DNA of 32,000 bases from Gemmata obscuriglobus (GCF_008065095.1 NZ_CP042911.1:1020001-1052000); one strand, 5' to 3'; positions 2,385-19,521 are shown, counted from the first letter of the stretch. Program-made: numbers and translations. The notes: generated from the sequence alone by a model not told the origin.

Positions 2385-3023
2385 TCACCAAGAGAAGTCG
2401 TGGGCGTACGTGTCCCAATCGATGGCACGAATCTGTTCACGCGCAGCCGGGTCGATCGGGAATGCGTAGTCATCCTGAAACCAGATGATCGTCAGTTGTG
2501 ATCCGTCTTGGTTCTTGTCTCGGGTCGGCTCGAACGAGTCGAATTCTCCAACGCACACGATCGCGGGAAGCAATCCGCACGGTGCTCGGTGAGGGGCGAC
2601 CTGTTCGATGGGGCTTTCGCGCGGCTGAACGAGGTACGGCACCTCGCCGCGTCGCAGTTGCTCTTCGGCAACGATCCGCTGAACGTGCTCGCGATTCATT
2701 TGGGTCGTGGGCGCGCCTTCCAGCAACCCCGCGTAAAAGTTCCATTGTCGGAGCGCGTTCAACCGAATCTCTCGACCCGCCCGCAGCTTTATCCGGTCTG
2801 GTTCGGCTTGCGGGTTCCCAACCGAGGCCAGCCACTCTGCGCCAGCCTGACCGCCGAGTTCGATCAGCCGCGCGTTGAGTTCCGCGACTTGGAGTTGTAC
2901 CTTGAGGAACTCGGCTTCGGCGGCGCGGCCCTGTTCGTCGAGCCAGTCGGCGTAGGCGAGGCGTGTGGCCCGCTCGGCCGGGTGGTCGGCGATGGCCTTC
3001 AGGAAACCGGCCTCGTCACTCAT
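2385..3023 (-). CDS. TIGR02996 (Gemmata 'repeat-companion') N-terminal domain protein with an unrecognised non-repeat C-terminal domain
   Basis: 212-aa ORF. The N-terminus MSDEAGFLKAIADHPAERATRLAYADWLDEQGRAAEAEFLKVQLQ fits the TIGR02996 pattern. The C-terminal ~130 aa (…LTIIWFQDDYAFPIDPAAREQIRAIDWDTYAHDFSW) is non-repetitive. The start lies 4 nt after the gpx stop on the same strand. Confidence 0.8.
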   Translation of the reverse strand: MSDEAGFLKAIADHPAERATRLAYADWLDEQGRAAEAEFLKVQLQVAELNARLIELGGQAGAEWLASVGNPQAEPDRIKLRAGREIRLNALRQWNFYAGLLEGAPTTQMNREHVQRIVAEEQLRRGEVPYLVQPRESPIEQVAPHRAPCGLLPAIVCVGEFDSFEPTRDKNQDGSQLTIIWFQDDYAFPIDPAAREQIRAIDWDTYAHDFSW

Positions 3024-3027
3024 CGCG

Positions 3028-3522
3028 TCACCCCAGCAGCTTTTCGATTTCGGCTTCCAGTTGTTGCGGGGTCGTGGTCGGGCCGCGGCGCGACACCACG
3101 TTGCCGTTCCGGTCCACGAGGAACTTGGTGAAGTTCCATTTGATGCCGCGGGTGCCGAGCGTGCCGCGGGCGGCGTCCTTGAGGTGCTGGTACAGCGGGT
3201 GCGCCGCGCCGCCGTTCACGTCCACCTTTGCGAACATCGGGAACGTCACATCGTACTTGAGCGAACAGAAGCTCTTGATCTCTTCTTCGTTGCCCGGCTC
3301 CTGGCCCATGAACTGGTTGCACGGGAAGCCCAGCACCACGAGCCCGCGGTCCTTGTACTTGCGTTGCAGCTCTTCGAGCCCCTTGTACTGACCGGTGAAG
3401 CCGCACTTGCTGGCGACGTTCACCACCAGCAGCACTTTGCCCCGGTACTGCTCGAGGGTAGTCTGCTGGCCGTCGATGGCCTTGACAGAGATGTCGTAAA
3501 CGCTGGCGGCGGTAGTGCTCAT
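3028..3522 (-). CDS. gpx: glutathione peroxidase (Cys-type)
   Basis: ORF 3028..3585; the ATG at 3522 gives MSTTAASVYDISVKAIDGQQTTLEQYRGKVLLVVNVASKCGFTGQYKGLEELQRKYKDRGLVVLGFPCNQF...IKWNFTKFLVDRNG. These are the three classic GPx blocks, and the peroxidatic residue is Cys rather than Sec. Confidence 0.9.
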   Translation of the reverse strand: MSTTAASVYDISVKAIDGQQTTLEQYRGKVLLVVNVASKCGFTGQYKGLEELQRKYKDRGLVVLGFPCNQFMGQEPGNEEEIKSFCSLKYDVTFPMFAKVDVNGGAAHPLYQHLKDAARGTLGTRGIKWNFTKFLVDRNGNVVSRRGPTTTPQQLEAEIEKLLG

Positions 3523-3956
3523 GGCGCTTCTTGAACTGGAGCGCGGGTTTGGCCCGCATAACGGATGGTAATGACTGGACCGCACCGTCCGCGGCTGGGC
3601 AACTGAACGGTCGGCGCGTTAAATCCGGCAACTTGCTCGTAGTTGTAGTCCAAGACATCTCTATCGGGGACGTAACACCGAAACCAGAACAGACAGCCGG
3701 CAAGTTCGACAACCGATCAGACGCGCCTGCGCTCACGGGCCGTCCATTGCCGAAAATTGTGTTGCTGACTATCCCGGCATCACAGTTGCAATTCGCACCA
3801 TACATCTTCGAATGCAGCCCGTTCTGAGTGCGAAACTGGTTCGCGTTGCCCGCTCTCGGTGCAATGCGAGCCTCGTTCTGTGGCACGAGGACTTGCCCAA
3901 TGTCCACTGTCGGTACACAACCGCGGCTCGCTCCGAGTACGAACGGTGTTTATTCG

Positions 3957-5402
3957 ATGCCGCGACTCTTCGACGGGTACTCCGCACACCCGGCCGCGTG
4001 GGACGAACTGTTTAACCGCACCGGAGCGCCGCACGCACACTGCGCCACGCTCGTGGACCGCCTCGGGAAGCTCAAGCACAACGAGTTCCAGCTTAAACGG
4101 AGCGGCGCCGATCTGGCGTTCGTGAACCAGGGGATCACGTTCAGCGTGTACTCCGACCGCCGCGGGGTGGAGAAGATCTTCCCGTTCGACCTGATCCCGC
4201 GCACAATCCCCGCCGCCGAATGGGCCGCGCTGGAAAAGGGGCTGGTGCAGCGCGTGCAGGCACTCAACCTGTTCCTGTACGACGTGTACCACGAGCAGAA
4301 GATCCTGCGCGAGGGCGTGGTGCCGGCGGAACTGGTGCTCGGGTCGAAGGGGTTCCGCAAAGAGGTGGTCGGGTTCCGCCCGCCGGGCGGGGTGTACGTT
4401 CACATTTGTGGCACCGACCTGATCCGCGACGTGGACGGCCAGTTCCTGGTCCTGGAGGACAACGGCCGGACGCCGAGCGGGGTGAGCTACGTGCTCGAGA
4501 ACCGCGCGGTGATGAAGAAGGTGTTCCCGCAACTGTTCGCGGACATTCGCGTGCGCCGCGTCGAAGATTACCCGCACCGGTTGCGTGAGGCGCTGGCGTC
4601 GGTGGCGCCGGCGGGCGCCGGCGCGCCGCCGTGCGTGGTGGTGCTGTCGCCGGGGCAGTACAACTCGGCGTACTTCGAGCACAGCTTCCTGGCCCGGCAC
4701 ATGGGCGTCGAACTGGTGTTCGGCGCCGACCTGTTCGTCCACGACGACATTGTGTACCTGAAGACCACCCGCGGCCCGCAGCGCGTCGACGTGATCTACC
4801 GCCGCCTGGACGACGACTTCCTAGACCCGGAAACGTTCCGGCCCGACAGCCTGCTGGGCGTTCCGGGGCTGTTCCGGGCGTACCGCGCGGGCAACGTGAC
4901 GCTCGCCAACGCCGTGGGCACCGGCGTCGCGGACGATAAGGCCGTGTACCCTTACGTGGAAGACATGATCCGGTTCTACCTGTCGGAGGAGCCGGTCCTG
5001 AAGAACGTGCCGACGTACATCTGCGCCCGCCCGGACGACTGCGCGTACACCCTCGCGCACCTGGGCGAACTGGTGGTGAAGGCGGTCAACGAGTCCGGCG
5101 GGTACGGGATGCTGATGGGGCCGTCGAGCACGGCGGCGCAGCGCGCGGAGTTCGCCGAGAAGATCCGCGAGAACCCGCGGAACTACGTGGCCCAGCCGGT
5201 TGTAACGCTCAGCACCTGCCCCACCTGGACCGAAGAGGGTGTGGCCCCGCGGCACCTCGACCTCCGCCCGTACATAATTACGGGGCGCTCGACGTGGGTG
5301 CTGCCCGGCGGCCTCACCCGCACCGCGCTCACCAAGGGCTCGCTGGTGGTCAACAGCAGCCAGGGCGGCGGCAGCAAGGACTCGTGGGTGCTGGAGAAGT
5401 GA
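3957..5402 (+). CDS. circularly permuted type-2 ATP-grasp protein (COG2308 / CP_ATPgrasp_2 type)
   Basis: ORF 3828..5402. GC3 rises sharply only after the ATG at 3957 ([19 protein letters not shown]...); alternative starts are 3900 and 3828. Family hallmarks: [100 protein letters not shown]. Confidence 0.9.
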
Positions 5403-5476
5403 GGACGGGACCGAACGCGTGTCGGCAACACCGGGCCCCCGCCCGGTGCCCCCGGTAGAGAGGCCGTGGAGCGAGC

Positions 5477-6484
5477 ATGATCTCTCGTGTTGCGGAGCAC
5501 TGCTTCTGGCTGGCCCGGTACCTGGAGCGCTCGGAGAACACCGCGCGCGTGCTGGAGGTCAACCACACCCTGCTGCTCGACTTCCACGTGCCGGTGGAGC
5601 AGCAGTGGCGGCCGGCGCTCATCATCTCCGGCATCCACGACTACGCCGAAGAGCCCACCGCGGAGCGCGTCCAGGCGTTCATGACCTGGGACCGGGAGAA
5701 CCCGTTCAGCATCGCGTCGTCGCTGGCATGGGCGCGGGAGAACGCCCGCATCATCCGCGAGGTGATCTCCGCGGAGATGTGGGAGCGGATGAACCACTAC
5801 CACCTCTGGATGCAGGCGCCCGAGAGCCGGGAACTGTACGACGGCAACCGGAGCGAGTTCTACGCCGAGGTGCGGCGCATCAACCAGCTCTTGCACGGCA
5901 TCGCCGACGCCACCATGAGCCACGGCGAGGCGTGGGAGTTCTTCAAGCTCGGCACGTACCTGGAGCGCGTCAGCCAGACGGCCCGCATCATGGACGTGAA
6001 GTACCACACGCTCCTGCCGAAGGTGGAGGACGTGGGCAGCCCGGTCGACAACGCCCACTGGGTCGCGATCCTGATGAGCTGCTCGGGGTACGAGCCGTTC
6101 CACAAGAAGGCCCGCGCCGCCCCGATGGACCCGGCCACCGCGGTCGCCGAGTTCCTGATCTTCGACGAGCAGTTCCCGCGGTCGATCAAGCGGTGCCTGT
6201 GGGAGTGCGAGTCCGCGACCGCGGCCGCCGCGGGCAACCCGGTCGGGCGCGACCGCACCAAGCCCGAGCGGCTGATCGGCGAGCTGATCGCGTACCTCGA
6301 CGCGCGGGCGATCCCGGACGTGATCCGCGAGGGGCTGCACGAGACGCTGACGCACGTGGTCGATTCGGTCCACCGGATCGGCGAGGCGGTCCACGCGGCG
6401 TTCTTCGCGGCGGACGTGCGCCCGCCCGGCTCCGGCGTGCGGCCCGGGCCGGCCACGGTGACGCAGAGCCAGAGTCAGTCGTAA
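5477..6484 (+). CDS. Alpha-E domain protein (COG2307 / DUF403 type)
   Basis: 335-aa ORF beginning MISRVAEHCFWLARYLERSENTARVLEVNHTLLLD, the typical Alpha-E N-terminus. A second helical signature is WEFFKLGTYLERVSQTARIMDVKYH. It starts 74 nt after the ATP-grasp gene. Confidence 0.9.
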   Translation: MISRVAEHCFWLARYLERSENTARVLEVNHTLLLDFHVPVEQQWRPALIISGIHDYAEEPTAERVQAFMTWDRENPFSIASSLAWARENARIIREVISAEMWERMNHYHLWMQAPESRELYDGNRSEFYAEVRRINQLLHGIADATMSHGEAWEFFKLGTYLERVSQTARIMDVKYHTLLPKVEDVGSPVDNAHWVAILMSCSGYEPFHKKARAAPMDPATAVAEFLIFDEQFPRSIKRCLWECESATAAAAGNPVGRDRTKPERLIGELIAYLDARAIPDVIREGLHETLTHVVDSVHRIGEAVHAAFFAADVRPPGSGVRPGPATVTQSQSQS

Positions 6485-6593
6485 GGGCGGCCGTCTCAAG
6501 TCGTCAAGTCCCAAGTCGTCGAGTCGGGGCGTCCGGTCGGATGGGGCCTGCCGACTTGGTGACTTGGGACCTGACGACTTGAGACGGCCGCCC
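6485..6593 (+). repeat. long imperfect inverted repeat (43-nt arms, 23-nt loop) followed by a C10 tract
   Basis: Arms 6485-6527 and 6551-6593 are complementary at 39/43 positions. Three of the 4 mismatches are G-U wobbles when read as + strand RNA. The repeat starts 1 nt after the Alpha-E stop codon. A C10 run lies at 6591-6600. Confidence 0.8.
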
Positions 6594-6649
6594 CCCCCCC
6601 AGAGGGGAAGACTTCTTCCGCCCGCTCTCCTGCCACAGGAACCACACGA

Positions 6650-9600
6650 ATGGGCATCCGGGTCGCGCTCCAGCACGTCACCAAGTACACCTACGACCGG
6701 CCCGTCACGCTCATGCCGCACGTGGTGCGGCTGCGGCCGGCGCCGCACGCGCGCACGCCGGTGCCGAGCTACTCCCTGAAGGTCGAGCCGGCCGAGCAGT
6801 TCCTGAACTGGCAGCAGGACCCGTACTCGAACTACCTCGCCCGGCTCGTGTTCCCGAAGCCGGCGCGGGAACTGGTCGTCACGGTGGACCTGATCGCCGA
6901 CCTGACGCCGATCAACCCGTTCGACTTCTTCGTGGAGGAGTACGCGAAGGAGTACCCGTTCCGGTACGACGCCGTCATCGCCCGTGAACTGGCCCCGTAT
7001 TTCGAGACGCTCCCCGCCGGCCCGCTTTTGCAGCGACTGATCGAGCGGGAGCGCAAGAGCGGCGAGAAGGCCATCGACTTCCTGGTGGGCCTGAACCGCG
7101 CGGTTCAAGACAAGGTCGAGTACGTTATCCGGATGGAGCCCGGCGTTCAGACGCCGGAAGAGACGCTCGAACTCGGCCGCGGGTCGTGCCGCGATTCGGC
7201 GTGGCTGCTCGTTCAACTCGCCCGCCACCTCGGCCTGGCCGCGCGCTTCGTATCGGGATACCTGATCCAGCTCGTCGCCGACGAGAAGCCGCTGGACGGC
7301 CCCGCCGGCCCGTCGGCCGACTTCACCGACCTGCACGCCTGGACCGAGATCTACCTGCCCGGCGCCGGCTGGGTCGGGCTCGACCCCACCTCCGGGCTGA
7401 TGACCGCCGAGGGGCACATCCCGCTCGCCTGCACCGCCGACCCGCAGTCGGCGGCGCCCGTCACCGGCTCGTACTCGTGGGCCAAAAAGGGCGACGACGA
7501 CAAGGTCGAAGAGGGGTTCGAGTTCCACATGTCGGTGACGCGGCTGGACGAGGCGCCGCGCGTCACCAAGCCGTACACCGAGGGGCAGTGGGCGGCGATC
7601 AACGCGCTGGGCCAGCGCATCGACGCCGACCTGCGCGAGTGGGACGTGCGGCTCACGATGGGCGGCGAGCCGACGTTCGTGAGCGTCGACGAGCGCGACG
7701 CCCCCGAGTGGAACATCACCGCCCTCGGGCCGCAGAAGCGCAAACAGGGCGTGACGCTCCTGAAGCGCCTTCGGGACAAGTTCGCGCCCGGCGGACTGTT
7801 GCACTACGGGCAGGGTAAGTGGTACCCCGGCGAGCAGCTCCCGCGCTGGGCGTTCTCGTGCTACTGGCGGCTCGACGGGGAGCCCATCTGGATCGACCCC
7901 ACGCTCACCGCCGACGGGGACCGCGCGTACGGGTTCGGGGCCGCGGACGCCGCCCGGTTCGTGCAGACACTGGCGGAGGTTCTTGGGGTCGATTCGCGGC
8001 ACGCGCTGCCGGGGTACGAGGACGCGTGGTACTACCTGTGGCGCGAGCGCCGGCTGCCGACGAACGTCGACCCGCTCAACAGCAAGCTCGACGACCCCGA
8101 GGAGCGCGCGCGGCTCGCGCGGGTGTTCGAGCAGAAGCTCGGGAGCCCGGTCGGCACCGTGCTCCCCCTGCGCCGCGCTTTCGGGGCGGGCTCGGGGTGG
8201 GAGAGCGGCCCGTGGTTCCTGCGGAAGGAGCACCTGTACCTGATCCCGGGCGACAGCCCGATGGGGTTCCGGCTGCCGCTCGACTCGGTCCCGTGGGAGG
8301 ACCCGTCGGCGCGGCAGTTCATGGAGCCGCGCGACCCGTTCGCGGCGCGCGGGCCGCTCCCACCGCGCATGATCGGCCCCGCGGTGCCCGCCGGCTTCGC
8401 CCGCACCGCGCCGGACTCGTTCCTCGACGTGTGGGGCCGGCCGCTGGAGCCGCGCGGACGTGACGGGCGCGGCCGCGCCCCGCAGCCGTCCACGAACGGA
8501 ACGGCGCACGCCGACCGGCCCGCGAGCGTCGTCCGCACCGCGTTGTGCGTCGAGCCGCGGGGCGGCGTGCTGCACGTGTTCATGCCGCCGGCGCGGTTCC
8601 TCGAAGACTACCTCGACCTCGTCGCGGCCGTCGAAACCACCGCGGCGAAGCTCGACCGGCCGGTGCTGATCGAGGGCTACAAGCCGCCGCACGACCCGCG
8701 GGTGAACCACTTCAGCATCACCCCCGACCCGGGCGTGATCGAAGCGAACATGCACCCGGCGCGGTCGTGGGACGAGGCGGTTCACATCACCACCACGCTG
8801 TACGAAGAGGCCCGCCAGGCCCGGCTGTGTACCGAGAAGTTCATGCTCGACGGGCGCCACACCGGCACCGGCGGCGGTAACCACGTCGTGCTCGGCGGTT
8901 CGACCCCCGCGGACAGCCCGTTCCTGCGCCGCCCGGACCTGCTCAAGAGCCTGGTGGGGTTCTGGAACAACCACCCGTCGCTGTCGTACCTGTTCAGCGG
9001 GCTGTTCGTCGGGCCGACCAGTCAGCACCCGCGCGTGGACGAGGCGCGCCACGACGCGCTGCGCGAACTGGAGATCGCGTTCGGACAGGTGGGGGAGGGG
9101 AGGAGCCCGCCGGCGTGGCTGGTGGACCGACTGTTCCGGAACCTCTTGACGGACATAACCGGGAACACGCACCGGGCCGAGTTCTGCATCGACAAGATGT
9201 TCAACCCGGACTCGGCCGAGGGGCGGCGGGGGCTCCTGGAGCTGCGCTCGTTCGAGATGCCGCCGCACGCCCGCATGAGCTGCGCCCAGCAGCTTTTGAT
9301 GCGGGCGCTGGTCGGGTGGTTCTGGCGCAAACCCTACGACCACAAGCTGGTGCGGTGGGGCACGTCGCTGCACGACCGGTTCATGCTGCCCCACTTCGTG
9401 TCGGAAGACTTTGCGGACGTCCTCGACGAGCTGCGCGAGCGCGGCGGGTACGCCATCGACCCCGCGTGGTTCACGCCCCACGTCGAGTTCCGGTTCCCCG
9501 TACTCGGCGCCGTCACGCACCGGGGGGTGAACCTCGAACTGCGCACCGCCATCGAGCCGTGGCACGTGCTGGGCGAGGAGGCCGCCGCGGGCGGCACCAG

Positions 9601-10111
9601 CCGCTACGTCGATTCGTCCGTCGAGCGCGTGCAGGTGAAGGTGCGCGGGCTCACCGACCCGCGGCACGTGCTCACGTGCAACGGCCGCCGCGTGCCGCTC
9701 CACCCCACGGGCACGCGGGGCGAGTTCGTCTCCGGCGTGCGGTACCGCGCGTGGCAGCCGCCGAGCTGCCTGCACCCCACGATCCCGGTCCACGCGCCGC
9801 TAGTGTTCGACTTACTGGACACCTGGAACGACCGCAGCATCGGCGGCTGCACCTACCACGTGTCCCACCCGGGCGGGCTGTCGCACGATAACTTCCCGGT
9901 CAACGCCCTGGCGGCCGAGAGCCGCCGCATCGCCCGGTTCTTCGCGTTCGGGCACACCCCCGGCCCGGTGAGCGTCCCGCCGGAGGAGCCGAATCCCGAG
10001 TTCCCGCTCACCCTCGACCTGCGAACGGCCGAACCGGTTCGGTACCGGCCGTTCGCCCCGGCCGAGCAGCAACAGACGCTCGGCCGCGCTTCCGTAACCG
10101 TCCTAGAATAG
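6650..10111 (+). CDS. large transglutaminase-family protein (Bact_transglu_N + transglutaminase core + DUF2126 'putative amidoligase' region)
   Basis: 1153-aa ORF. The N-terminus [33 protein letters not shown] is Bact_transglu_N-like. The Cys/His/Asp core is [29 protein letters not shown] ... [23 protein letters not shown]. The ~800-aa C-terminal extension is of the type found in DUF2126 proteins. The 1536-aa antisense ORF is a shadow. Confidence 0.9.
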   Translation: [1153 protein letters not shown]

Positions 10112-10168
10112 GGCAACGGCGCCGCCGGGCCGCGGTCGCCGCGCCCCGCCTCTTCCCGGCACTTACGG

Positions 10169-12751
10169 ATGTCAGACGGCCTCACCGAACCCCTGACCGA
10201 CCCGCGACTCGCGCCCGGCACCGATTTTCGGTCCGGCGCCGAGCCGTCCGGTTATTACGAGGCCGTAGACGACGCGGGCGAGCCGCGCCCGCACTGGGCC
10301 GCGTTCGACGACGCGCTCCGCGAACTCGGCCGCGACGAACTCGCGGGCCGCTGGCGCGAGGCGAAGCAGCTCATCCGCGAGAACGGGGTCACCTACAACG
10401 TGTACGGCGACCCGCACGGGATCGCCCGCCCGTGGCAGCTCGACCCGATCCCGCTCCTCGTCCCGACGCACGAGTCCGTCTTCCTCGGCCGCGGGCTGAT
10501 CCAGCGCGCGAAGCTGATGGAACTCGTCCTCACGGACCTTTACGGCCCGCAGCGACTGCTCAAGGACGGCCTGATCCCGCCGCAGTTGGTGTTCCCGAAC
10601 CCCGGCTTCCTGCGCCCCGTTCACGGCATCAAAGTGCCCGGCGGGCGGTACCTGCACCTCTACGCCGCGAACCTCGGGCGCGGGTCCGACGGGAACTGGC
10701 GGGTGATCGGCGACCGCACCCAGGCGCCCTCTGGCGCGGGCTACGCGCTCGAGAACCGCATCGTGATGACGCGGACGCTGCCCGAGGCGTTCCGCGACTG
10801 CCGCGTCCACCGGCTCGCGCTCTTCTTCCAGACGTTCCGGGACACGCTCCGCGCGCTGGCGCCGCGCAACAAGGACAACCCCCGCGTCGTGCTGCTCACG
10901 CCCGGGCCGTACAACGAGACCTATTTCGAGCACGCCTACCTCGCACGCTACCTCGGCTACACGCTCGTGGAGGGCGGCGACCTCACGGTCCGCGACAACC
11001 GCGTCTACCTGAAGGTCCTCGGCGGCCTGCAACCCGTCGACGTGATCTTCCGGCGGCTCGACGACGACTTCTGCGACCCGCTCGAGCTGCGCCCCGACTC
11101 GTTCCTCGGGGTCCCGGGGCTGGTCCACGCGGCCCGGAGCGGCAACGTGGTCGTTGCCAACGCGCTCGGGACGGGGGTCCTCGAAACGCCGGCGCTACCG
11201 GCGTTCCTGCCGCGCCTCTGCCGCGCCGTTCTGGGCGAGGAGCTGAAGCTCGAGTCCGTCGCAACGTGGTGGTGCGGGGAACCCGACTCGCTGCGGTACG
11301 TCCTCGACCACTTGAGTCAGCTCGTCATCAAACCGGTGTTCCCGGCGACGCGCATCGAGCCCGTGTTCCCGGCGGAACTGACGGCCGCGCAGCGGATTGC
11401 GCTCGTTGAGCGGTTGCAGGCCCGGCCCTGGGACTTCGTCGCGCAGGACCGCCTCGATTTGTCCTCGGCGCCGGTCCTCGACGGCGACCGCCTGGTGCGC
11501 CGCAAGCTCGTCGTGCGGGCGTACCTCGCGGCCGACACGAACGGCGGGTTCATGTGCATGCCGGGCGGGCTGACACGCGTGAGCGCGTCCCCGGACACCA
11601 CCGTCGTGTCGATGCAGCGCGGCGGCGGGAGCAAGGACACCTGGGTGCTCGCGGACGCCGCGGTCAGCGACTTCAGCCTGCTGCCCGGGAGCGGCCAGCG
11701 CGTCGTTCTGACGCGCTCCGGCGGGAACCTGCCGAGCCGCGCCGCGGACAACCTGTACTGGCTCGGCCGCTACGCCGAACGCGCCGAAGGGCTGACGCGG
11801 CTGCTCCGCGGGATCGTCGTGCGGATCACCGAGCGGTCCGGGCTCGTGGACAGTCCCGAGCTGCCGCACCTGCTGCACGCGCTGGCCATTACTGCGGACC
11901 CGAAGTGCCCGCGCGGGGAGGTCGAATGCGACCCGCTGGACCGCGTGTTCCCGGCGGTGTTCGACAGCTCCGACCCGAACAGCCTCGCGTCCGTGGTGAA
12001 CGCGGTACGGTCGGTCGCGTCGGTGGTGCGTGACCTCATCTCGCTCGACATGTGGCGGGTGGTGAACTCGCTCGGCGAACTCACCCGCCCGCCGGTCGAC
12101 GACGACGGCCCGACGCCCGCGGCGGTGCTCGATCTGCTGAATCGCACCGTGGTGACGCTGGCCGCGTTCGGCGGGCTGGCGACCGAGAGCATGACCCGCG
12201 GGGAAGGCTGGCGGTTCCTCGACCTCGGCCGCAAGCTCGAGCGCTCGCTGCACACCATCGGGCTCATCCGGGCCACGCTGGTCAACGTGTCGCCGCAAGA
12301 GGGGCCGGTGCTCGACGCCGTGCTGGAGGTGGCGGACAGCGGGATGACGTACCGGCGCCGCTACATGAGCAGCCTGCGCGCGGAAGCCGTGCTGGACCTG
12401 CTCGTGGACGACGAGACGAACCCGCGATCACTCGCGTCGCAACTCGCGGCCCTGGCGGAAGATGTGGACCACCTCCCGCGCTCGACCGGGCTGGCCGGAC
12501 GCGCCCCGGAGCAGCGGTTCGCTCTCGCCGCGCTGGGCTCCGTCCGGATGGCCGAGCCCGAACGGCTCGCGGTGGTGGAGGAGGGGACGCGGCCCGCGCT
12601 GAAGGTGCTGCTGGACCACGTCGCGGGCTGGCTGCCGATCCTGTCGGACGCGATCACGCAGCAGTACTTGAGCCACCTGCAAACGTCGCGGCACCTCGCC
12701 CGGCCCGACCTGACGCTGCTCACCGCGGCCGATTCCGGTGACCGATTGTGA
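10169..12751 (+). CDS. fused circularly permuted ATP-grasp + Alpha-E protein
   Basis: 860-aa ORF. The N-terminal ~480 aa parallels gene 3957..5402 (VTYNVYGD, IGDRTQAPSGAGYALENR, YNETYFEHAYLARYLG, DVIFRRLDDDFCDPLELRPDSFLGVPGL, GNVVVANALGTGV, GGGSKDTWVL). The C-terminal ~330 aa parallels Alpha-E (NLYWLGRYAERAEGLTRLLR, WRFLDLGRKLERSLHTIGLIR). Confidence 0.9.
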   Translation: MSDGLTEPLTDPRLAPGTDFRSGAEPSGYYEAVDDAGEPRPHWAAFDDALRELGRDELAGRWREAKQLIRENGVTYNVYGDPHGIARPWQLDPIPLLVPTHESVFLGRGLIQRAKLMELVLTDLYGPQRLLKDGLIPPQLVFPNPGFLRPVHGIKVPGGRYLHLYAANLGRGSDGNWRVIGDRTQAPSGAGYALENRIVMTRTLPEAFRDCRVHRLALFFQTFRDTLRALAPRNKDNPRVVLLTPGPYNETYFEHAYLARYLGYTLVEGGDLTVRDNRVYLKVLGGLQPVDVIFRRLDDDFCDPLELRPDSFLGVPGLVHAARSGNVVVANALGTGVLETPALPAFLPRLCRAVLGEELKLESVATWWCGEPDSLRYVLDHLSQLVIKPVFPATRIEPVFPAELTAAQRIALVERLQARPWDFVAQDRLDLSSAPVLDGDRLVRRKLVVRAYLAADTNGGFMCMPGGLTRVSASPDTTVVSMQRGGGSKDTWVLADAAVSDFSLLPGSGQRVVLTRSGGNLPSRAADNLYWLGRYAERAEGLTRLLRGIVVRITERSGLVDSPELPHLLHALAITADPKCPRGEVECDPLDRVFPAVFDSSDPNSLASVVNAVRSVASVVRDLISLDMWRVVNSLGELTRPPVDDDGPTPAAVLDLLNRTVVTLAAFGGLATESMTRGEGWRFLDLGRKLERSLHTIGLIRATLVNVSPQEGPVLDAVLEVADSGMTYRRRYMSSLRAEAVLDLLVDDETNPRSLASQLAALAEDVDHLPRSTGLAGRAPEQRFALAALGSVRMAEPERLAVVEEGTRPALKVLLDHVAGWLPILSDAITQQYLSHLQTSRHLARPDLTLLTAADSGDRL

Positions 12752-12875
12752 GGTTCGATCCAATCGTTTTCAGTTCCAGCTTCCGAGTTGCTAATCGGCT
12801 CGACACAAGCTCTGGGCCAATTGTGTGTCTTTTGACCTTACGCGGAACCTGGAACTGGAAACCACCGGGCTCGGT

Positions 12876-13775
12876 ATGATCCGCTACACCATCACGCACG
12901 TCACCACCTACGACTATACCGAGCCGGTGTCGCTGTGCCAGAACGTGGCGCACCTGTCGGCACGCGACAGCGAGCGGCAGCAGGTGGAACGACCGCTCCT
13001 GTCGATCAACCCCGAACCGGCGGTAATCGAGGAGCGGGTCGATTACTTCGGCAACCCGGTCCACTACTTCACGATCCAGGAACCGCATCGCGAACTGACC
13101 GTTCGCGCCGAGCACGTCATCAGCGTGTCGGTTGAACCACCACCGGACCCTGCAACAACTCCGGCATGGGAACTGATCCGCGATCAGCTCAACTGGAACC
13201 GCAGCCCGGCGTGGATCGACGCGTATCAGTTCGTTGTCGATTCACGGTACGTCGCGGCCGACGGGCGATACGCGCGGTACGCCGCCGAATCGTTCACCCC
13301 GAACCGTCCGGTGCTCGAGGCCGCGCTGGAACTAATGGCACGGGTCCACAAAGAGTTCGTGTACGATCCGCGCGCGACGACGCTCGCGACACCGGTCGCG
13401 GAGGTGTTCGAGAAGCGGCGCGGGGTGTGTCAGGACTTCGCGCACTTGCTGCTCGCATGTCTGCGGTCGCTCGGGCTCGCGGCCCGATACGTGAGCGGAT
13501 ACCTTTCGACCCTCCCACCGCCCGGTAAATCTCGGCTCATCGGTGCTGACGCCAGCCACGCTTGGGTAAGTGTGTTTTGCGGTGACATCGGATGGGTCGA
13601 CCTCGATCCGACGAACGATCAGATCCCAGCCGAGCGTCACGTCTTGCTCGCATGGGGACGCGACTACGACGACGTAAGTCCGCTAAAGGGTGTTATTCTG
13701 GGAGGAGGGCAACACGTTGTGAAAGTGTCCGTGGATGTCTGTCCGGATCAGCCCGAACTCGGCGTCGTGGGCTGA
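12876..13775 (+). CDS. transglutaminase-family protein (Bact_transglu_N + transglutaminase core)
   Basis: ORF 12825..13775; the ATG at 12876 gives MIRYTITHVTTYDYTEPVSLCQNVAHL, the Bact_transglu_N start. The catalytic motifs are RRGVCQDFAHLLLACLRSLGLAARYVSGY, ASHAWVSVF and WVDLDPTND. Confidence 0.9.
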   Translation: MIRYTITHVTTYDYTEPVSLCQNVAHLSARDSERQQVERPLLSINPEPAVIEERVDYFGNPVHYFTIQEPHRELTVRAEHVISVSVEPPPDPATTPAWELIRDQLNWNRSPAWIDAYQFVVDSRYVAADGRYARYAAESFTPNRPVLEAALELMARVHKEFVYDPRATTLATPVAEVFEKRRGVCQDFAHLLLACLRSLGLAARYVSGYLSTLPPPGKSRLIGADASHAWVSVFCGDIGWVDLDPTNDQIPAERHVLLAWGRDYDDVSPLKGVILGGGQHVVKVSVDVCPDQPELGVVG

Positions 13776-14278
13776 GGTGTCCTTTGGTCACGATCAAAAA
13801 AGCGTGAAATCCTTCAGCGACAATGCTTTGGAACGATAGCTTCAGCTCGGCGAGTTGACGTCTGGGTGTTCGGGGTGCTACGATGTGGGAGAAGAACACG
13901 TGAGGCACGGGCGCTGGGGCCGTGCAGTTGGACGGGGAACGAGTGAAGTAGCGACGAACCTGTGTCGGTGCCAATCCGGCTGGTCGAGCGAACCCTTTTC
14001 CGCGAAAAATCTGTCCAAAAGTGTGCGAGTCGTGGTTCGGGCGCAAGCCCGTTCGAGCGGATGACTTGCACGTCACGAGGGGGACCGGGATTCGGCGTGA
14101 TGCCGGTCCGGTTCCGAGATGGGGCTTGGCGAACGGCTGCCGGGGCCCTATACCTCAATCTTCCCCACGATTGCGGACGCATCGTGCCGCGAAAATGACG
14201 GGCAGACATGCCCGCACGTGTTAGTTATTTGATGTTCGAGACTGGTTCGCGAGTCGGAAAGAAAAGTGATGGGACGGG

Positions 14279-14306
14279 TTGACGGATGGGGGTCGCGAGC
14301 TAAGAT
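14279..14306 (+). promoter_or_regulatory. candidate rRNA promoter (sigma-70 type)
   Basis: TTGACG (14279-14284), 16-nt spacer, TAAGAT (14301-14306). An A-rich stretch GAAAGAAAAG lies just upstream, about 175 nt before the 23S processing stem. Pattern match only. Confidence 0.4.
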
Positions 14307-14482
14307 GATCGGAGTGACGCAAACGCAACGCGGGTAACGAGTTGCGACGCGAAAAGTTGGTCCGGCTCGCTCGATCAGGGCGGCCGAACCATTCGGGTTC
14401 CGGAAGCGGCTCGTGAGGGCGGCGGACGGGGCTCAACAAGCCGGTAAGACGGCCAGTGGCAGGTGGTGTGACCTCCTGCCGA

Positions 14483-14522
14483 GACGGTCTTTGACAACGT
14501 GGTGAAGCAAGTTAAGTTGCAT
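14483..14522 (+). other. 5' strand of the 23S precursor processing stem (partner 17536-17576)
   Basis: Three helices verified by hand: 14483-14488 with 17571-17576 (6 bp); 14494-14508 with 17548-17562 (15 bp perfect); 14514-14522 with 17536-17544 (9 bp including one G-U). Together they bracket the whole 23S gene. Confidence 0.65.
14488..14497 (+). promoter_or_regulatory. boxA-like antitermination element upstream of 23S
   Basis: TCTTTGACAA resembles the E. coli rrn boxA core (GCTCTTTAACAA). An identical decamer recurs upstream of 16S at 17810-17819. Confidence 0.5.
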
Positions 14523-14753
14523 CTTCGTCGGTGCCGCTTGCGGGTCGTCTGGGTGTGGCGTCGCTCCTTCGGGTGCGGGGTCGGGTCCGGCGGGTTGCGG
14601 GTGGCGGCGATCAGTGACAAGACGAGACACGAGCCTTAGAAGTGGTTGAGATAATCGTCACCCGTGGCACATATCGGTGCCACGGGTGACACTAGTGGTG
14701 ATGCTCGACGAACGGTACCCGCTTGCCGGCGGGTGCGGTGGTCTGGGCAGTGC

Positions 14754-17501
<2,748 letters not shown>

Positions 17502-17598
17502 GCACTCCCCACTCCACCGCCCGTGTCTCGAACACATGCGACTTGACGCTTCACCACGTTGTACCGATACACCGTCGGGGTAACCCGACACGAACCAT

Positions 17599-17706
17599 GC
17601 CGGTGACCATACCCAAACGGAAACACCCGTTCCCATTCCGAACACGGCCGTGAAACGTTTGAGGCCGATGGTAGTGCGTCCAGCGCGAGAGTAGGTATCG
17701 CCGGCT
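17599..17706 (+). rRNA. rrf: 5S ribosomal RNA
   Basis: GCCGGTGACCATACCCAAACGGAAACACCCGTTCCCATTCCGAACACGGCCGTGAAACGTTTGAGGCCGATGGTAGTGCGTCCAGCGCGAGAGTAGGTATCGCCGGC. It carries the conserved CCGAAC, GATGGTAGTG and GAGAGTAGG blocks and a terminal helix GCCGGTGA/TCGCCGGC. It lies about 97 nt after 23S. Confidence 0.9.
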
Positions 17707-17808
17707 ACTGTACAATCGATCGACGCCTCTGGACGAGAGGGCCGATCGCCAATACACTCTGATGAGGAGTGGCTTGCTCGACCGGTCAAACGGTTGAGCC
17801 GAGTGCTG

Positions 17809-17848
17809 ATCTTTGACAAGTGGGTGCGTGAGATCTGTTTGAGGTGGG
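17809..17848 (+). other. 5' strand of the 16S precursor processing stem (partner 19576-19615)
   Basis: The hand pairing has a 14-bp perfect core (17817-17830 with 19594-19607), extended on both sides with a few mismatches to roughly 35 bp in total. It brackets the whole 16S gene. Confidence 0.65.
17810..17819 (+). promoter_or_regulatory. boxA-like antitermination element upstream of 16S
   Basis: In context TGATCTTTGACAA, which matches 11 of 13 positions of E. coli boxA TGCTCTTTAACAA. It is embedded in the 5' strand of the 16S processing stem. Confidence 0.5.
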
Positions 17849-18021
17849 TTAACGCCGTTGAGTAGGTGTTAACTCCATCTCGGATCGGATCACAACGAAC
17901 GAGCTCCGCCGCGAGGTGGGGTGCGTGCGGTGTGATGCGGTCCAAGACTGAAGTCGACACCGAACAACGGCCGGATTGAACTCGACCAAGTCGCTGCCGG
18001 GTGACTGGCAGTGCGAAAATT

Positions 18022-19521
<1,500 letters not shown>

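Follow-up and report, generated by a model that had tools for sequence, protein, structure and literature searches.

We describe five co-directional genes (g1–g5) within a 32,000-nucleotide (nt) stretch of Gemmata obscuriglobus DNA (NZ_CP042911.1:1020001-1052000; 'the window' hereafter) that almost certainly belong to the cpATP-grasp / Alpha-E / transglutaminase class of amidoligase systems. The reading we favour, to which we give about an even chance, is that they form one sigma-54-dependent operon for a cytoplasmic system that would form and cleave amide bonds and whose substrate the cluster does not itself encode. The class itself is already known from comparative genomics. New here are a sigma-54 promoter that recurs at the start of the cluster in several phyla and a tally of cluster layouts, together with the lack of a solved structural relative for Alpha-E and supporting but inconclusive evidence for a glutamine synthetase (GS)-like core in DUF2126.

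The five genes, and the two parts of g3, are as follows (coordinates are those of the window).
3957–5402, + strand: g1, stand-alone cpATP-grasp ligase of 481 amino acids (aa); alternative upstream starts at 3900 and 3828
5477–6484, + strand: g2, Alpha-E protein of 335 aa
6650–10111, + strand: g3, Bact_transglu_N + Transglut_core + DUF2126 protein of 1153 aa
6650–7498, + strand: N-terminal half of g3, Bact_transglu_N and a transglutaminase-like thiol peptidase/amidase core (Pfam, invariant triad, Foldseek)
7499–10111, + strand: C-terminal part of g3, DUF2126, a predicted GS/GCS2-like carboxylate-amine ligase that contains a large insert and, towards its C-terminus, a beta-rich region (Pfam E = 0, weak Foldseek matches)
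10169–12751, + strand: g4, fused cpATP-grasp (aa 95–472) and Alpha-E (aa 521–834) protein of 860 aa
12876–13775, + strand: g5, small Bact_transglu_N + Transglut_core protein of 299 aa; its frame is open from a GTG at 12825

An open reading frame (ORF) listing and translation bore out the original prediction of five co-directional genes with short gaps, which measure 74, 165, 57 and 124 nt from g1 to g5. Start codons are uncertain in g1 (3828, 3900 or 3957, with a public gene call at 3900) and g5 (GTG 12825 or ATG 12876) only. The gene set is real, and a chance pattern is excluded. A protein identical to g3 is encoded in GCA_000171775.1 (record ABGO01000409), the assembly of G. obscuriglobus UQM 2246, and the nearest g3 relative in the genome collection, at 94% identity, is that of Gemmata algarum.

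Every family assignment made from the bare sequence was recovered by Pfam search. CP_ATPgrasp_2 matched g1 at 4.5e-170, covering residues 1–374 of the 374-residue model, and g4 at 2.3e-154, again over the full-length model; Alpha-E matched g2 at 1.8e-84 and g4 at 3.9e-70 (aa 521–834). Bact_transglu_N and Transglut_core were found in both g3 (2.3e-25 and 6.7e-18) and g5 (9.1e-26 and 1.6e-21), and DUF2126 matched aa 284–1125 of g3 with an E value of 0. The two transglutaminase cores had been predicted to keep intact Cys/His/Asp motifs, and we located them in both: GSCRDSA, LHAWTE and GLDPTSG at aa 178, 228 and 243 of g3, with a triad (C180, H229, D245) that is invariant among 45 homologues, and GVCQDFA, SHAWVS and DLDPTND at aa 183, 227 and 242 of g5 (triad C185, H228, D244). 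The repeated domains are paralogous at varying distance: g1 and the N-terminal half of g4 share 40% identity over 484 aa (E 2.6e-115), g2 and the C-terminal half of g4 share 25% (E 7e-15), and g5 and the g3 N-terminus share 29.5% over ~270 aa. None of the five N-termini has an apparent signal peptide when inspected by eye, and on that basis the proteins appear cytoplasmic. NCBIfam holds no named family for any of them.

A sigma-54 type element lies in the 371-nt divergent intergenic region in front of the cluster.
3775–3789, + strand: sigma-54 type -24/-12 element CGGCATCACAGTTGC, ~170 nt 5' of the g1 ATG

When the upstream regions of 12 Gemmataceae are aligned, columns average 41% identity and only one block, GGC-N5-A-N-TTGC, shows no variation; it lies at a constant distance from g1. 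We surveyed 74 loci with at least 300 nt 5' of the first cluster gene for a GG-N10-GC pattern within 400 nt, using random 431-nt pieces of the same loci as background. An element with at most two mismatches heads the cluster in 46 of the 74 loci compared with 13% of background pieces, the loci being related and hence non-independent samples; with at most one mismatch, the figures are 22 of 74 and 1.2%. Among five-gene loci the element stands 5' of g1 in 22 of 25 and 5' of g3 in none of the 25. It is also found 5' of g1 on a Caballeronia plasmid.

To compare the layouts of related loci we ran tblastn with each query divided into its domains. Scanning one genome per species yielded more than 582 relatives of g3, of which the best 80 were examined; 46 loci had enough flanking sequence for a tally. 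The five-gene colinear layout was seen in 17 of these 46 (12 Planctomycetota, 3 Verrucomicrobiota and 2 Acidobacteriota) and g3-g4-g5 alone in 20, including all 8 Alphaproteobacteria as well as Myxococcota, Acidobacteriota and others; together the two layouts span at least six phylum-level groups. The remaining arrangements are rarer – g3-g4-g5-g1-g2 (two loci, both Thauera), g1-g2 divergently upstream of the set (two), g1–g4 without g5 (two, G. algarum included) and g3 alone (three). Wherever the g1-g2 pair is present it adjoins g3-g4-g5, and the cluster proteins are 60–77% identical across phyla. The expectation that these families recur together is thus borne out, and the five-gene layout is not special to this genome. 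g3-g4-g5 is the stable core and g1-g2 an accessory pair; the Gemmata layout repeats the canonical triad order (grasp, Alpha-E, transglutaminase-like) twice, with the N-terminal half of g3 filling the first transglutaminase slot.

One further feature bears on the extent of the transcription unit.
13758–13786, + strand: weak hairpin of terminator type, T-rich in its tail, at the g5 stop; 3000–14800 holds no other such site on the + strand

A single sigma-54 element stands at the head of the cluster, none precedes g3, and a terminator-like site is found only at g5; these features therefore point to one operon in which the two modules are integrated. We consider it probable, on these sequence signals, that the five genes are a single operon, and somewhat less firmly that expression in Gemmata would be under nitrogen or sigma-54 control. 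The suggestion that the two modules act together is strengthened by the one head promoter, the lack of an element before g3 and the colinearity across phyla. A head promoter shared across phyla and accompanied by varied combinations of modules in turn argues for one nitrogen-controlled pathway.

These combinations include additional genes. On the Caballeronia plasmid, g1-g2 is followed by an opposite-strand gene for a Peptidase_Mx/zinc-ribbon protein and then by g3-g4-g5, and in three further lineages (L009, L040 and L059) a Peptidase_Mx gene adjoins g5; the gene is absent from the window and appears to be a sporadic extra module. The genes annotated as zinc-ribbon + Peptidase_Mx 'putative zinc-binding metallopeptidase' are listed by locus.
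L086 (Burkholderiaceae), 7814–8875, − strand
L009 (Gemmataceae), 16915–17967, − strand
L040 (Verrucomicrobiota), 16772–17815, + strand
L059 (Pirellulales), 17147–18219, + strand

Extra small transglutaminase-like genes form another such addition.
L066, 10001–10831: extra small transglutaminase-like gene
L020, 9377–9994: extra small transglutaminase-like gene
L038, 8026–8871: extra small transglutaminase-like gene

In Nibricoccus such a gene lies between g2 and g3, giving a six-gene layout in which the first triad is complete, and in two planctomycete metagenome-assembled genomes (MAGs) it follows g5. The system is thus modular: its parts are a grasp/Alpha-E unit, either split or fused, a transglutaminase-DUF2126 fusion, a small transglutaminase-like protein and occasional peptidases. 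In G. algarum, synteny breaks at g4/g5, and g4 is followed by a 470-aa ORF (L003 16160–17640) that is oxidoreductase-like and carries a twin-arginine signal by eye. A MAG contig labelled 'uncultured Alcaligenaceae' (L014) carries g1-g2-g3-g4 in Gemmataceae order, with a Gemmataceae-type promoter and a g3 of 72% identity; its taxonomic label is probably a binning error.

The Gemmata promoter element agrees with published expression data, according to which homologous clusters rank among the strongest NtrC/sigma-54, nitrogen-limitation-induced genes (PMC5491218, PMC8050072). In Burkholderia cenocepacia, I35_5080-83 (DUF404/407, DUF403, transglutaminase-like and large transglutaminase-like) are sigma-54 dependent, have ntrC-mutant table values of -6.0 to -9.4, and are co-regulated with urease, nitrate reductase and glnA (PMC5491218). 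When Pseudomonas putida grows on nitrate rather than ammonium, PP_2685, which encodes the proteasome homologue Anbu, changes by a log2 factor of 4.4 and PP_2688, which encodes a cpATP-grasp protein, by one of 4.0 (PMC8050072); N limitation raises expression of the Anbu operon in this species (PMC6376114, PMC5666114). A study of marine metagenomes found these domains to vary together with genes of urea metabolism (PMC3597751). The original prediction described the class as predicted yet uncharacterised, which stands, and missed this published induction by NtrC/sigma-54 and nitrogen limitation. According to the papers that cite it, the prediction of the class goes back to Iyer, Abhiman, Burroughs & Aravind 2009. 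Structural studies of Anbu report neither peptidase activity nor a complex with its operon partners, and call the functional hypotheses untested (PMC6376114, PMC5666114). The class is widespread – in soil and aquatic bacteria and in pathogens that include Mycobacterium tuberculosis and Burkholderia – so that the Gemmata locus is an ordinary example that would not surprise specialists; what the survey adds is a handle, the cross-phylum head promoter.

M. tuberculosis has what we take to be counterparts of most of these genes, judged from annotations only: Rv2567 (fused grasp-Alpha-E) for g4, the Rv2411c-Rv2409c triad for g1-g2, and Rv2569c, presumably, for g5. The architecture of Rv2566 (transglutaminase + DUF2126) is that of g3. 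The M. tuberculosis modules sit at separate loci, as inferred from gene numbers, whereas those of Gemmata lie in one predicted operon. Rv2569c has been reported as a secreted 'serine protease' whose activity is blocked by serine-protease inhibitors and not by E-64 or N-ethylmaleimide (NEM), whereas the paper's own domain analysis predicted a cysteine protease (PMC11081392). A 2026 preprint reports that Rv2411c and Rv2567 do not make gamma-aminobutyric acid (GABA)-trehalose and does not characterise them otherwise. The claim that no product, substrate or phenotype had been established holds in that the class is uncharacterised, with two caveats – the protease report for Rv2569c, and the release of inorganic phosphate from ATP by the Yersinia bercovieri cpATP-grasp protein (PMC6376114).

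g1 matches PDB entry 3n6x at 2.5e-174 (residues 15–480) and g4 matches it at 1e-97; this is the only solved cpATP-grasp structure, a structural-genomics entry deposited as a putative glutathionylspermidine synthase, which is a label only. Pfam reported neither CHAP nor GSP_synth in any of the five. In Foldseek searches the N-terminal part of g3 matched 3isr at 8e-11 and TgpA (6g49/6g4h) at ~1e-5. g5 matches 3isr and TgpA at 2.3e-10 and 6.9e-10, respectively.

The AlphaFold2 model of g2 is all alpha-helical (predicted local distance difference test score (pLDDT) 84.8, predicted template modelling score (pTM) 0.84), and its two ER motifs, E17-R18 and E163-R164, are invariant in 40 sequences, the g4 copy included. 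Foldseek comparison of this model with the PDB gave a best E value of 0.16, and template modelling (TM) scores did not exceed 0.28 among the 50 listed matches. As modelled, Alpha-E is thus a confidently predicted domain with no relative among solved structures. The g4 fusion indicates that grasp and Alpha-E function as a unit.

For DUF2126 a third ligase, GS-like in type, is the likely reading, drawn from weak fold matches and motifs aligned by eye. The g3 model is of moderate quality (pLDDT 67). In Foldseek, DUF2126 matched more than 10 GS-family structures, all weakly at this model quality (E 0.02–0.8), the best being 9n4x (E 0.02, probability 0.94) and others including two gamma-glutamyl-amine synthetases, GmaS (gamma-glutamylmethylamide) and a 1-naphthylamine GS-type ligase, and the GS homologue 4hpp. 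Family-invariant motifs at E340, E698, H745, R842 and E864/R866 are colinear with those of GS, again by eye; set against Escherichia coli GlnA, the by-eye mapping is as follows.
GGEPTF (E340) in g3: GPEPEF in GlnA
VIE (E698) in g3: HHEV in GlnA
TGGGNH (H745) in g3: NGSGMH in GlnA
NTHRAEF (R842) in g3: NRSASIR in GlnA
LELRxFE (E864, R866) in g3: IEVRFPD in GlnA

The reading of DUF2126 as a third ligase is consistent with the Pfam description and with Iyer et al. 2008, who placed Rv2566 in the GS/GCS2-like ligase superfamily, the superfamily of the Pup ligase PafA. Permissive Pfam scans of g3 sub-segments returned DUF2126 only, and a literature search on DUF2126 by name returned no paper. The family is large (6,604 clusters at 50% identity, E ≤0.001). 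Many of its members are only ~750–850 aa long (e.g. P0254, P0262, P0276 and P0295) and too short for the transglutaminase-like half; their best-matching listed stretch corresponds to query residues ~340–845, suggesting that the GS-like core also occurs as a stand-alone protein.

The cluster was also examined for a substrate or partner gene. The intergenic gaps contain no + strand ORF of more than 15 aa. Among the 10 other ORFs of the window and the recurrent flanking ORFs of the 80 loci there is no Anbu-like gene, Anbu itself not having been used as a query, and neither these window ORFs nor the recurrent neighbours include a proteasome or AAA+ gene. The earlier statement that the window holds no precursor ORF and no Anbu agrees with these scans. 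All-against-all clustering of 2,508 flanking ORFs revealed no conserved sixth gene, only generic families at variable distances; of two clusters inspected, one held ABC ATPases and the other contained a serine/threonine kinase-like protein. An anti-phage defence role was considered and rejected, as none of the five proteins matched a defence-system model in PADLOC-DB.

Several named systems share parts of this design. Anbu-type systems (P. putida PP_2685-2688 and Y. bercovieri) resemble Gemmata in having grasp, Alpha-E and transglutaminase-like genes in the same order and proteins that appear cytoplasmic; in Gemmata, by contrast, no Anbu was found, the grasp/Alpha-E unit is present twice (once split, once fused), and one transglutaminase-like domain bears an 870-aa GS-like DUF2126 extension. 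Nitrogen-limitation induction has been reported for the Pseudomonas operon. The cluster of B. cenocepacia H111 (I35_5080-5083, BCAM1233-1236) is dependent on sigma-54 and NtrC, in agreement with the Gemmata promoter element; it differs in having four genes with one grasp/Alpha-E unit and no fused g4 homologue, as judged by annotations only. Glutathionylspermidine synthetase/amidase (GspSA), in which an ATP-dependent amide ligase that forms an acyl-phosphate is joined, within one protein or operon, to a papain-like thiol amidase that reverses the reaction, resembles the Gemmata set in logic only: the Gemmata domains have a transglutaminase fold with Bact_transglu_N rather than CHAP, and an Alpha-E partner is present. 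Finally, among gamma-glutamyl ligases of the GS superfamily that work with hydrolases, PafA/Dop (pupylation), PuuA/PuuD (putrescine catabolism) and GmaS offer examples of a ligase paired with an amide-cleaving enzyme and of a link to nitrogen metabolism, and Gemmata resembles them through the DUF2126 motifs and weak GS fold matches, although the GS relation is not statistically secure. It differs from all of them in that a thiol domain of transglutaminase-like type, joined to the ligase, takes the place of the hydrolase, and from pupylation in having no Pup-like ORF in the gaps and no proteasome or AAA+ gene among the scanned neighbours.

How might such a system work? The proteins together hold three ligase-type domains (two cpATP-grasp and one GS-like DUF2126), two Alpha-E domains and two thiol domains in which the Cys-His-Asp triad is intact. 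The fusions couple grasp physically to Alpha-E in g4, and a thiol domain to the GS-like ligase in g3. By analogy with the Burkholderia and Pseudomonas homologues, scarce fixed nitrogen would switch the operon on. Each ligase would then convert a carboxylate to an acyl-phosphate and join it to an amine, as ATP-grasp and GS family members do, and the transglutaminase-like domains, if they act as their family does, would form an acyl-enzyme from gamma-glutamyl, isopeptide or peptide-type amides and hydrolyse or transfer it. The build-and-trim or tag-and-remove machine of the original prediction is a conjecture. The substrate may be a metabolite, a short peptide or a housekeeping protein drawn from general metabolism. 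By analogy with GspSA and PuuA/PuuD, the role we favour would be nitrogen salvage or redistribution on small gamma-glutamyl or peptide-type compounds.

We lean slightly, and tentatively, toward a small molecule rather than a protein as the substrate, with less than even confidence. This lean follows from three considerations: neither the window nor the recurrent neighbours yielded a gene for a tag, an unfoldase or Anbu, the genes co-regulated with homologues are nitrogen-scavenging genes, and the nearest structural neighbours are small-molecule ligases. Such likelihood as is left beyond small-molecule and protein-tagging chemistry falls to other chemistry. Solving the system would fill a gap in the bacterial nitrogen economy and assign functions to Alpha-E and DUF2126.

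A number of observations weigh against a sigma-54-dependent operon for amide chemistry on small compounds. The Gemmata element is a two-mismatch match, and a scan of the window finds 27 such matches where 32 are expected by chance; because window matches occur at this chance rate, the weight of the promoter derives from cross-species conservation only, and the loci surveyed for it are related rather than independent. Only about half of the loci in which g3 comes first carry the element 5' of g3 (24 of 49), and no NtrC-like or other activator site shared among 13 Gemmataceae promoters was found, which leaves NtrC itself a candidate activator. The long hairpin between g2 and g3, described below, could attenuate or process the transcript, and the lack of g5 after g4 in G. 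algarum indicates that its adjacency is not obligatory. The GS-like fold matches of DUF2126 are weak (E ≥0.02 at pLDDT 67) and the relation is not significant at profile level: searching the PDB with a DUF2126 profile (hmmsearch, shallow and diverse alignments) gave nothing significant for GS, nor did hhalign against E. coli YbdK and GlnA, although its top, non-significant alignment paired LELRSFEMP of g3 with the VEVRVMD motif (E-x-R) of YbdK. The association with Anbu elsewhere and the Peptidase_Mx links point to peptide or protein substrates and not to small amines. Literature searches found no product, substrate or mutant phenotype for the class, and nothing relevant on Gemmata and transglutaminase.

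The alternative that survives best is protein tagging and turnover, as put forward by Iyer et al. 2009 in the account given by citing papers. On this model the cpATP-grasp/Alpha-E ligases would attach single amino acids or short tags of non-ribosomal peptide to carboxylates or lysines of target proteins, while tag removal, trimming or cross-linking would fall to the transglutaminase-like domains; proteins would so be marked for degradation and nitrogen recycled during starvation – an analogue of pupylation without an encoded tag. The model draws strength from the linkage of the triad to Anbu in other lineages and sporadically to Peptidase_Mx (the Caballeronia plasmid, L009, L040 and L059), from the tendency of transglutaminase-fold enzymes to act on proteins and peptides, and from the membership of DUF2126 in the ligase superfamily of PafA; induction by nitrogen starvation would fit raised protein turnover. 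We nevertheless consider it unlikely: there is no tag gene, and no Anbu, proteasome or AAA+ gene among the scanned window ORFs or recurrent neighbours, Anbu showed neither peptidase activity nor a complex with its operon partners, and no modified protein has been reported. Less likely again is a specific form of it, a nitrogen-starvation-induced machine without an encoded tag, in which three ligases would add amino acids or short peptides (gamma-glutamyl, poly-Glu) to proteins and the transglutaminase-like domains would erase or transfer these marks. Were it true, such modification would remodel the proteome or earmark it for recycling, and thousands of bacterial species, M. tuberculosis included, would possess an equivalent of ubiquitin- or Pup-like signalling, with Alpha-E as a substrate adaptor of new fold.

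Biosynthesis of a small non-ribosomal peptide or amide natural product (siderophore-like, signalling or antibiotic), with the thiol domains as transacylases or maturation peptidases, is improbable. Three ATP-dependent amide ligases and the lack of a ribosomal precursor would suit such a pathway, and ATP-grasp and transglutaminase-like enzymes do build natural products elsewhere, closthioamide being a reported example. The cluster, however, has no linked gene for export, tailoring or resistance, and its neighbours vary from locus to locus. The 60–77% identity across phyla and the size of the DUF2126 family argue for core metabolism rather than a specialised metabolite, and co-regulation with urease, nitrate reductase and GS points to nitrogen economy.

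We give still less credence to accidental adjacency, in which g1-g2 and g3-g5 would be independent systems lying side by side. That g3-g4-g5 stands alone in 20 of 46 loci, that the pair can lie downstream (Thauera) or divergently, and that a strong hairpin separates g2 from g3 would all be expected under it. Harder to reconcile with independent systems are a colinear order shared by 17 loci of three phyla and kept, apart from one inserted gene, on the Caballeronia plasmid, a sigma-54 element before g1 in 22 of 25 five-gene loci and never before g3, or a pair that, when present, is always beside the set. The weakest alternative, that g5 is a secreted broad-range protease as reported for Rv2569c and its neighbours are functionally unrelated, can be set aside as scarcely credible given the conflict between the serine-type inhibitor profile (not E-64/NEM) and a predicted cysteine protease, the N-terminus of g5, which is not signal-peptide-like by eye, the tight and wide co-clustering with ATP-dependent cytoplasmic ligases, and the life of Gemmata as a free-living aquatic bacterium.

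Two inverted repeats lie between genes of the predicted operon.
6485–6593, + strand: long hairpin with 43-nt arms (91% complementary), directly after the g2 stop
12766–12862, + strand: weaker inverted repeat with 23-nt arms in the g4-g5 gap (z = -2.6)

The 176-nt region containing the g2-g3 hairpin folds at -113 kcal/mol (z = -9.8). The hairpin is kept in G. algarum, where the base of its stem shows compensatory changes, and is absent where the g2-g3 gap is ~25 nt. It is made of GTC/GAC-rich sub-repeats and is followed by a C-run instead of a T-run. It may serve in the processing, stability or attenuation of the mRNA, or may be an insertion resembling repetitive extragenic palindromic (REP) sequences.

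The ~170-nt leader of g1 contains a semi-conserved palindrome, TGCC-N9-GGCA, in Gemmataceae (~3845–3865; alignment columns 404–421). A riboswitch or leader RNA 5' of g1 was considered and set aside, as Rfam gave no match to the leader and the consensus fold of 11 leaders is a 5-pair hairpin only (-2.4 kcal/mol, with some compensatory changes).

Across the divergent intergenic region that holds the sigma-54 element lies a glutathione peroxidase (GSHPx) gene (3028–3585, − strand), a neighbour that is not recurrent among the flanking-ORF clusters of related loci. An rRNA gene set starts ~1 kb downstream of the five-gene cluster (14754–19520, + strand), and the window contains no tRNA genes. Its order is 23S (14754–17503), 5S (17599–17706) and 16S (18022–19520), all on the + strand, with the 16S gene 316 nt 3' of the 5S gene, whereas the usual order is 16S-23S-5S. 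The 23S match covers the full Rfam model (1–2925) in 2750 nt, so that the gene appears to fall ~175 nt short of the bacterial consensus and probably lacks some helices.

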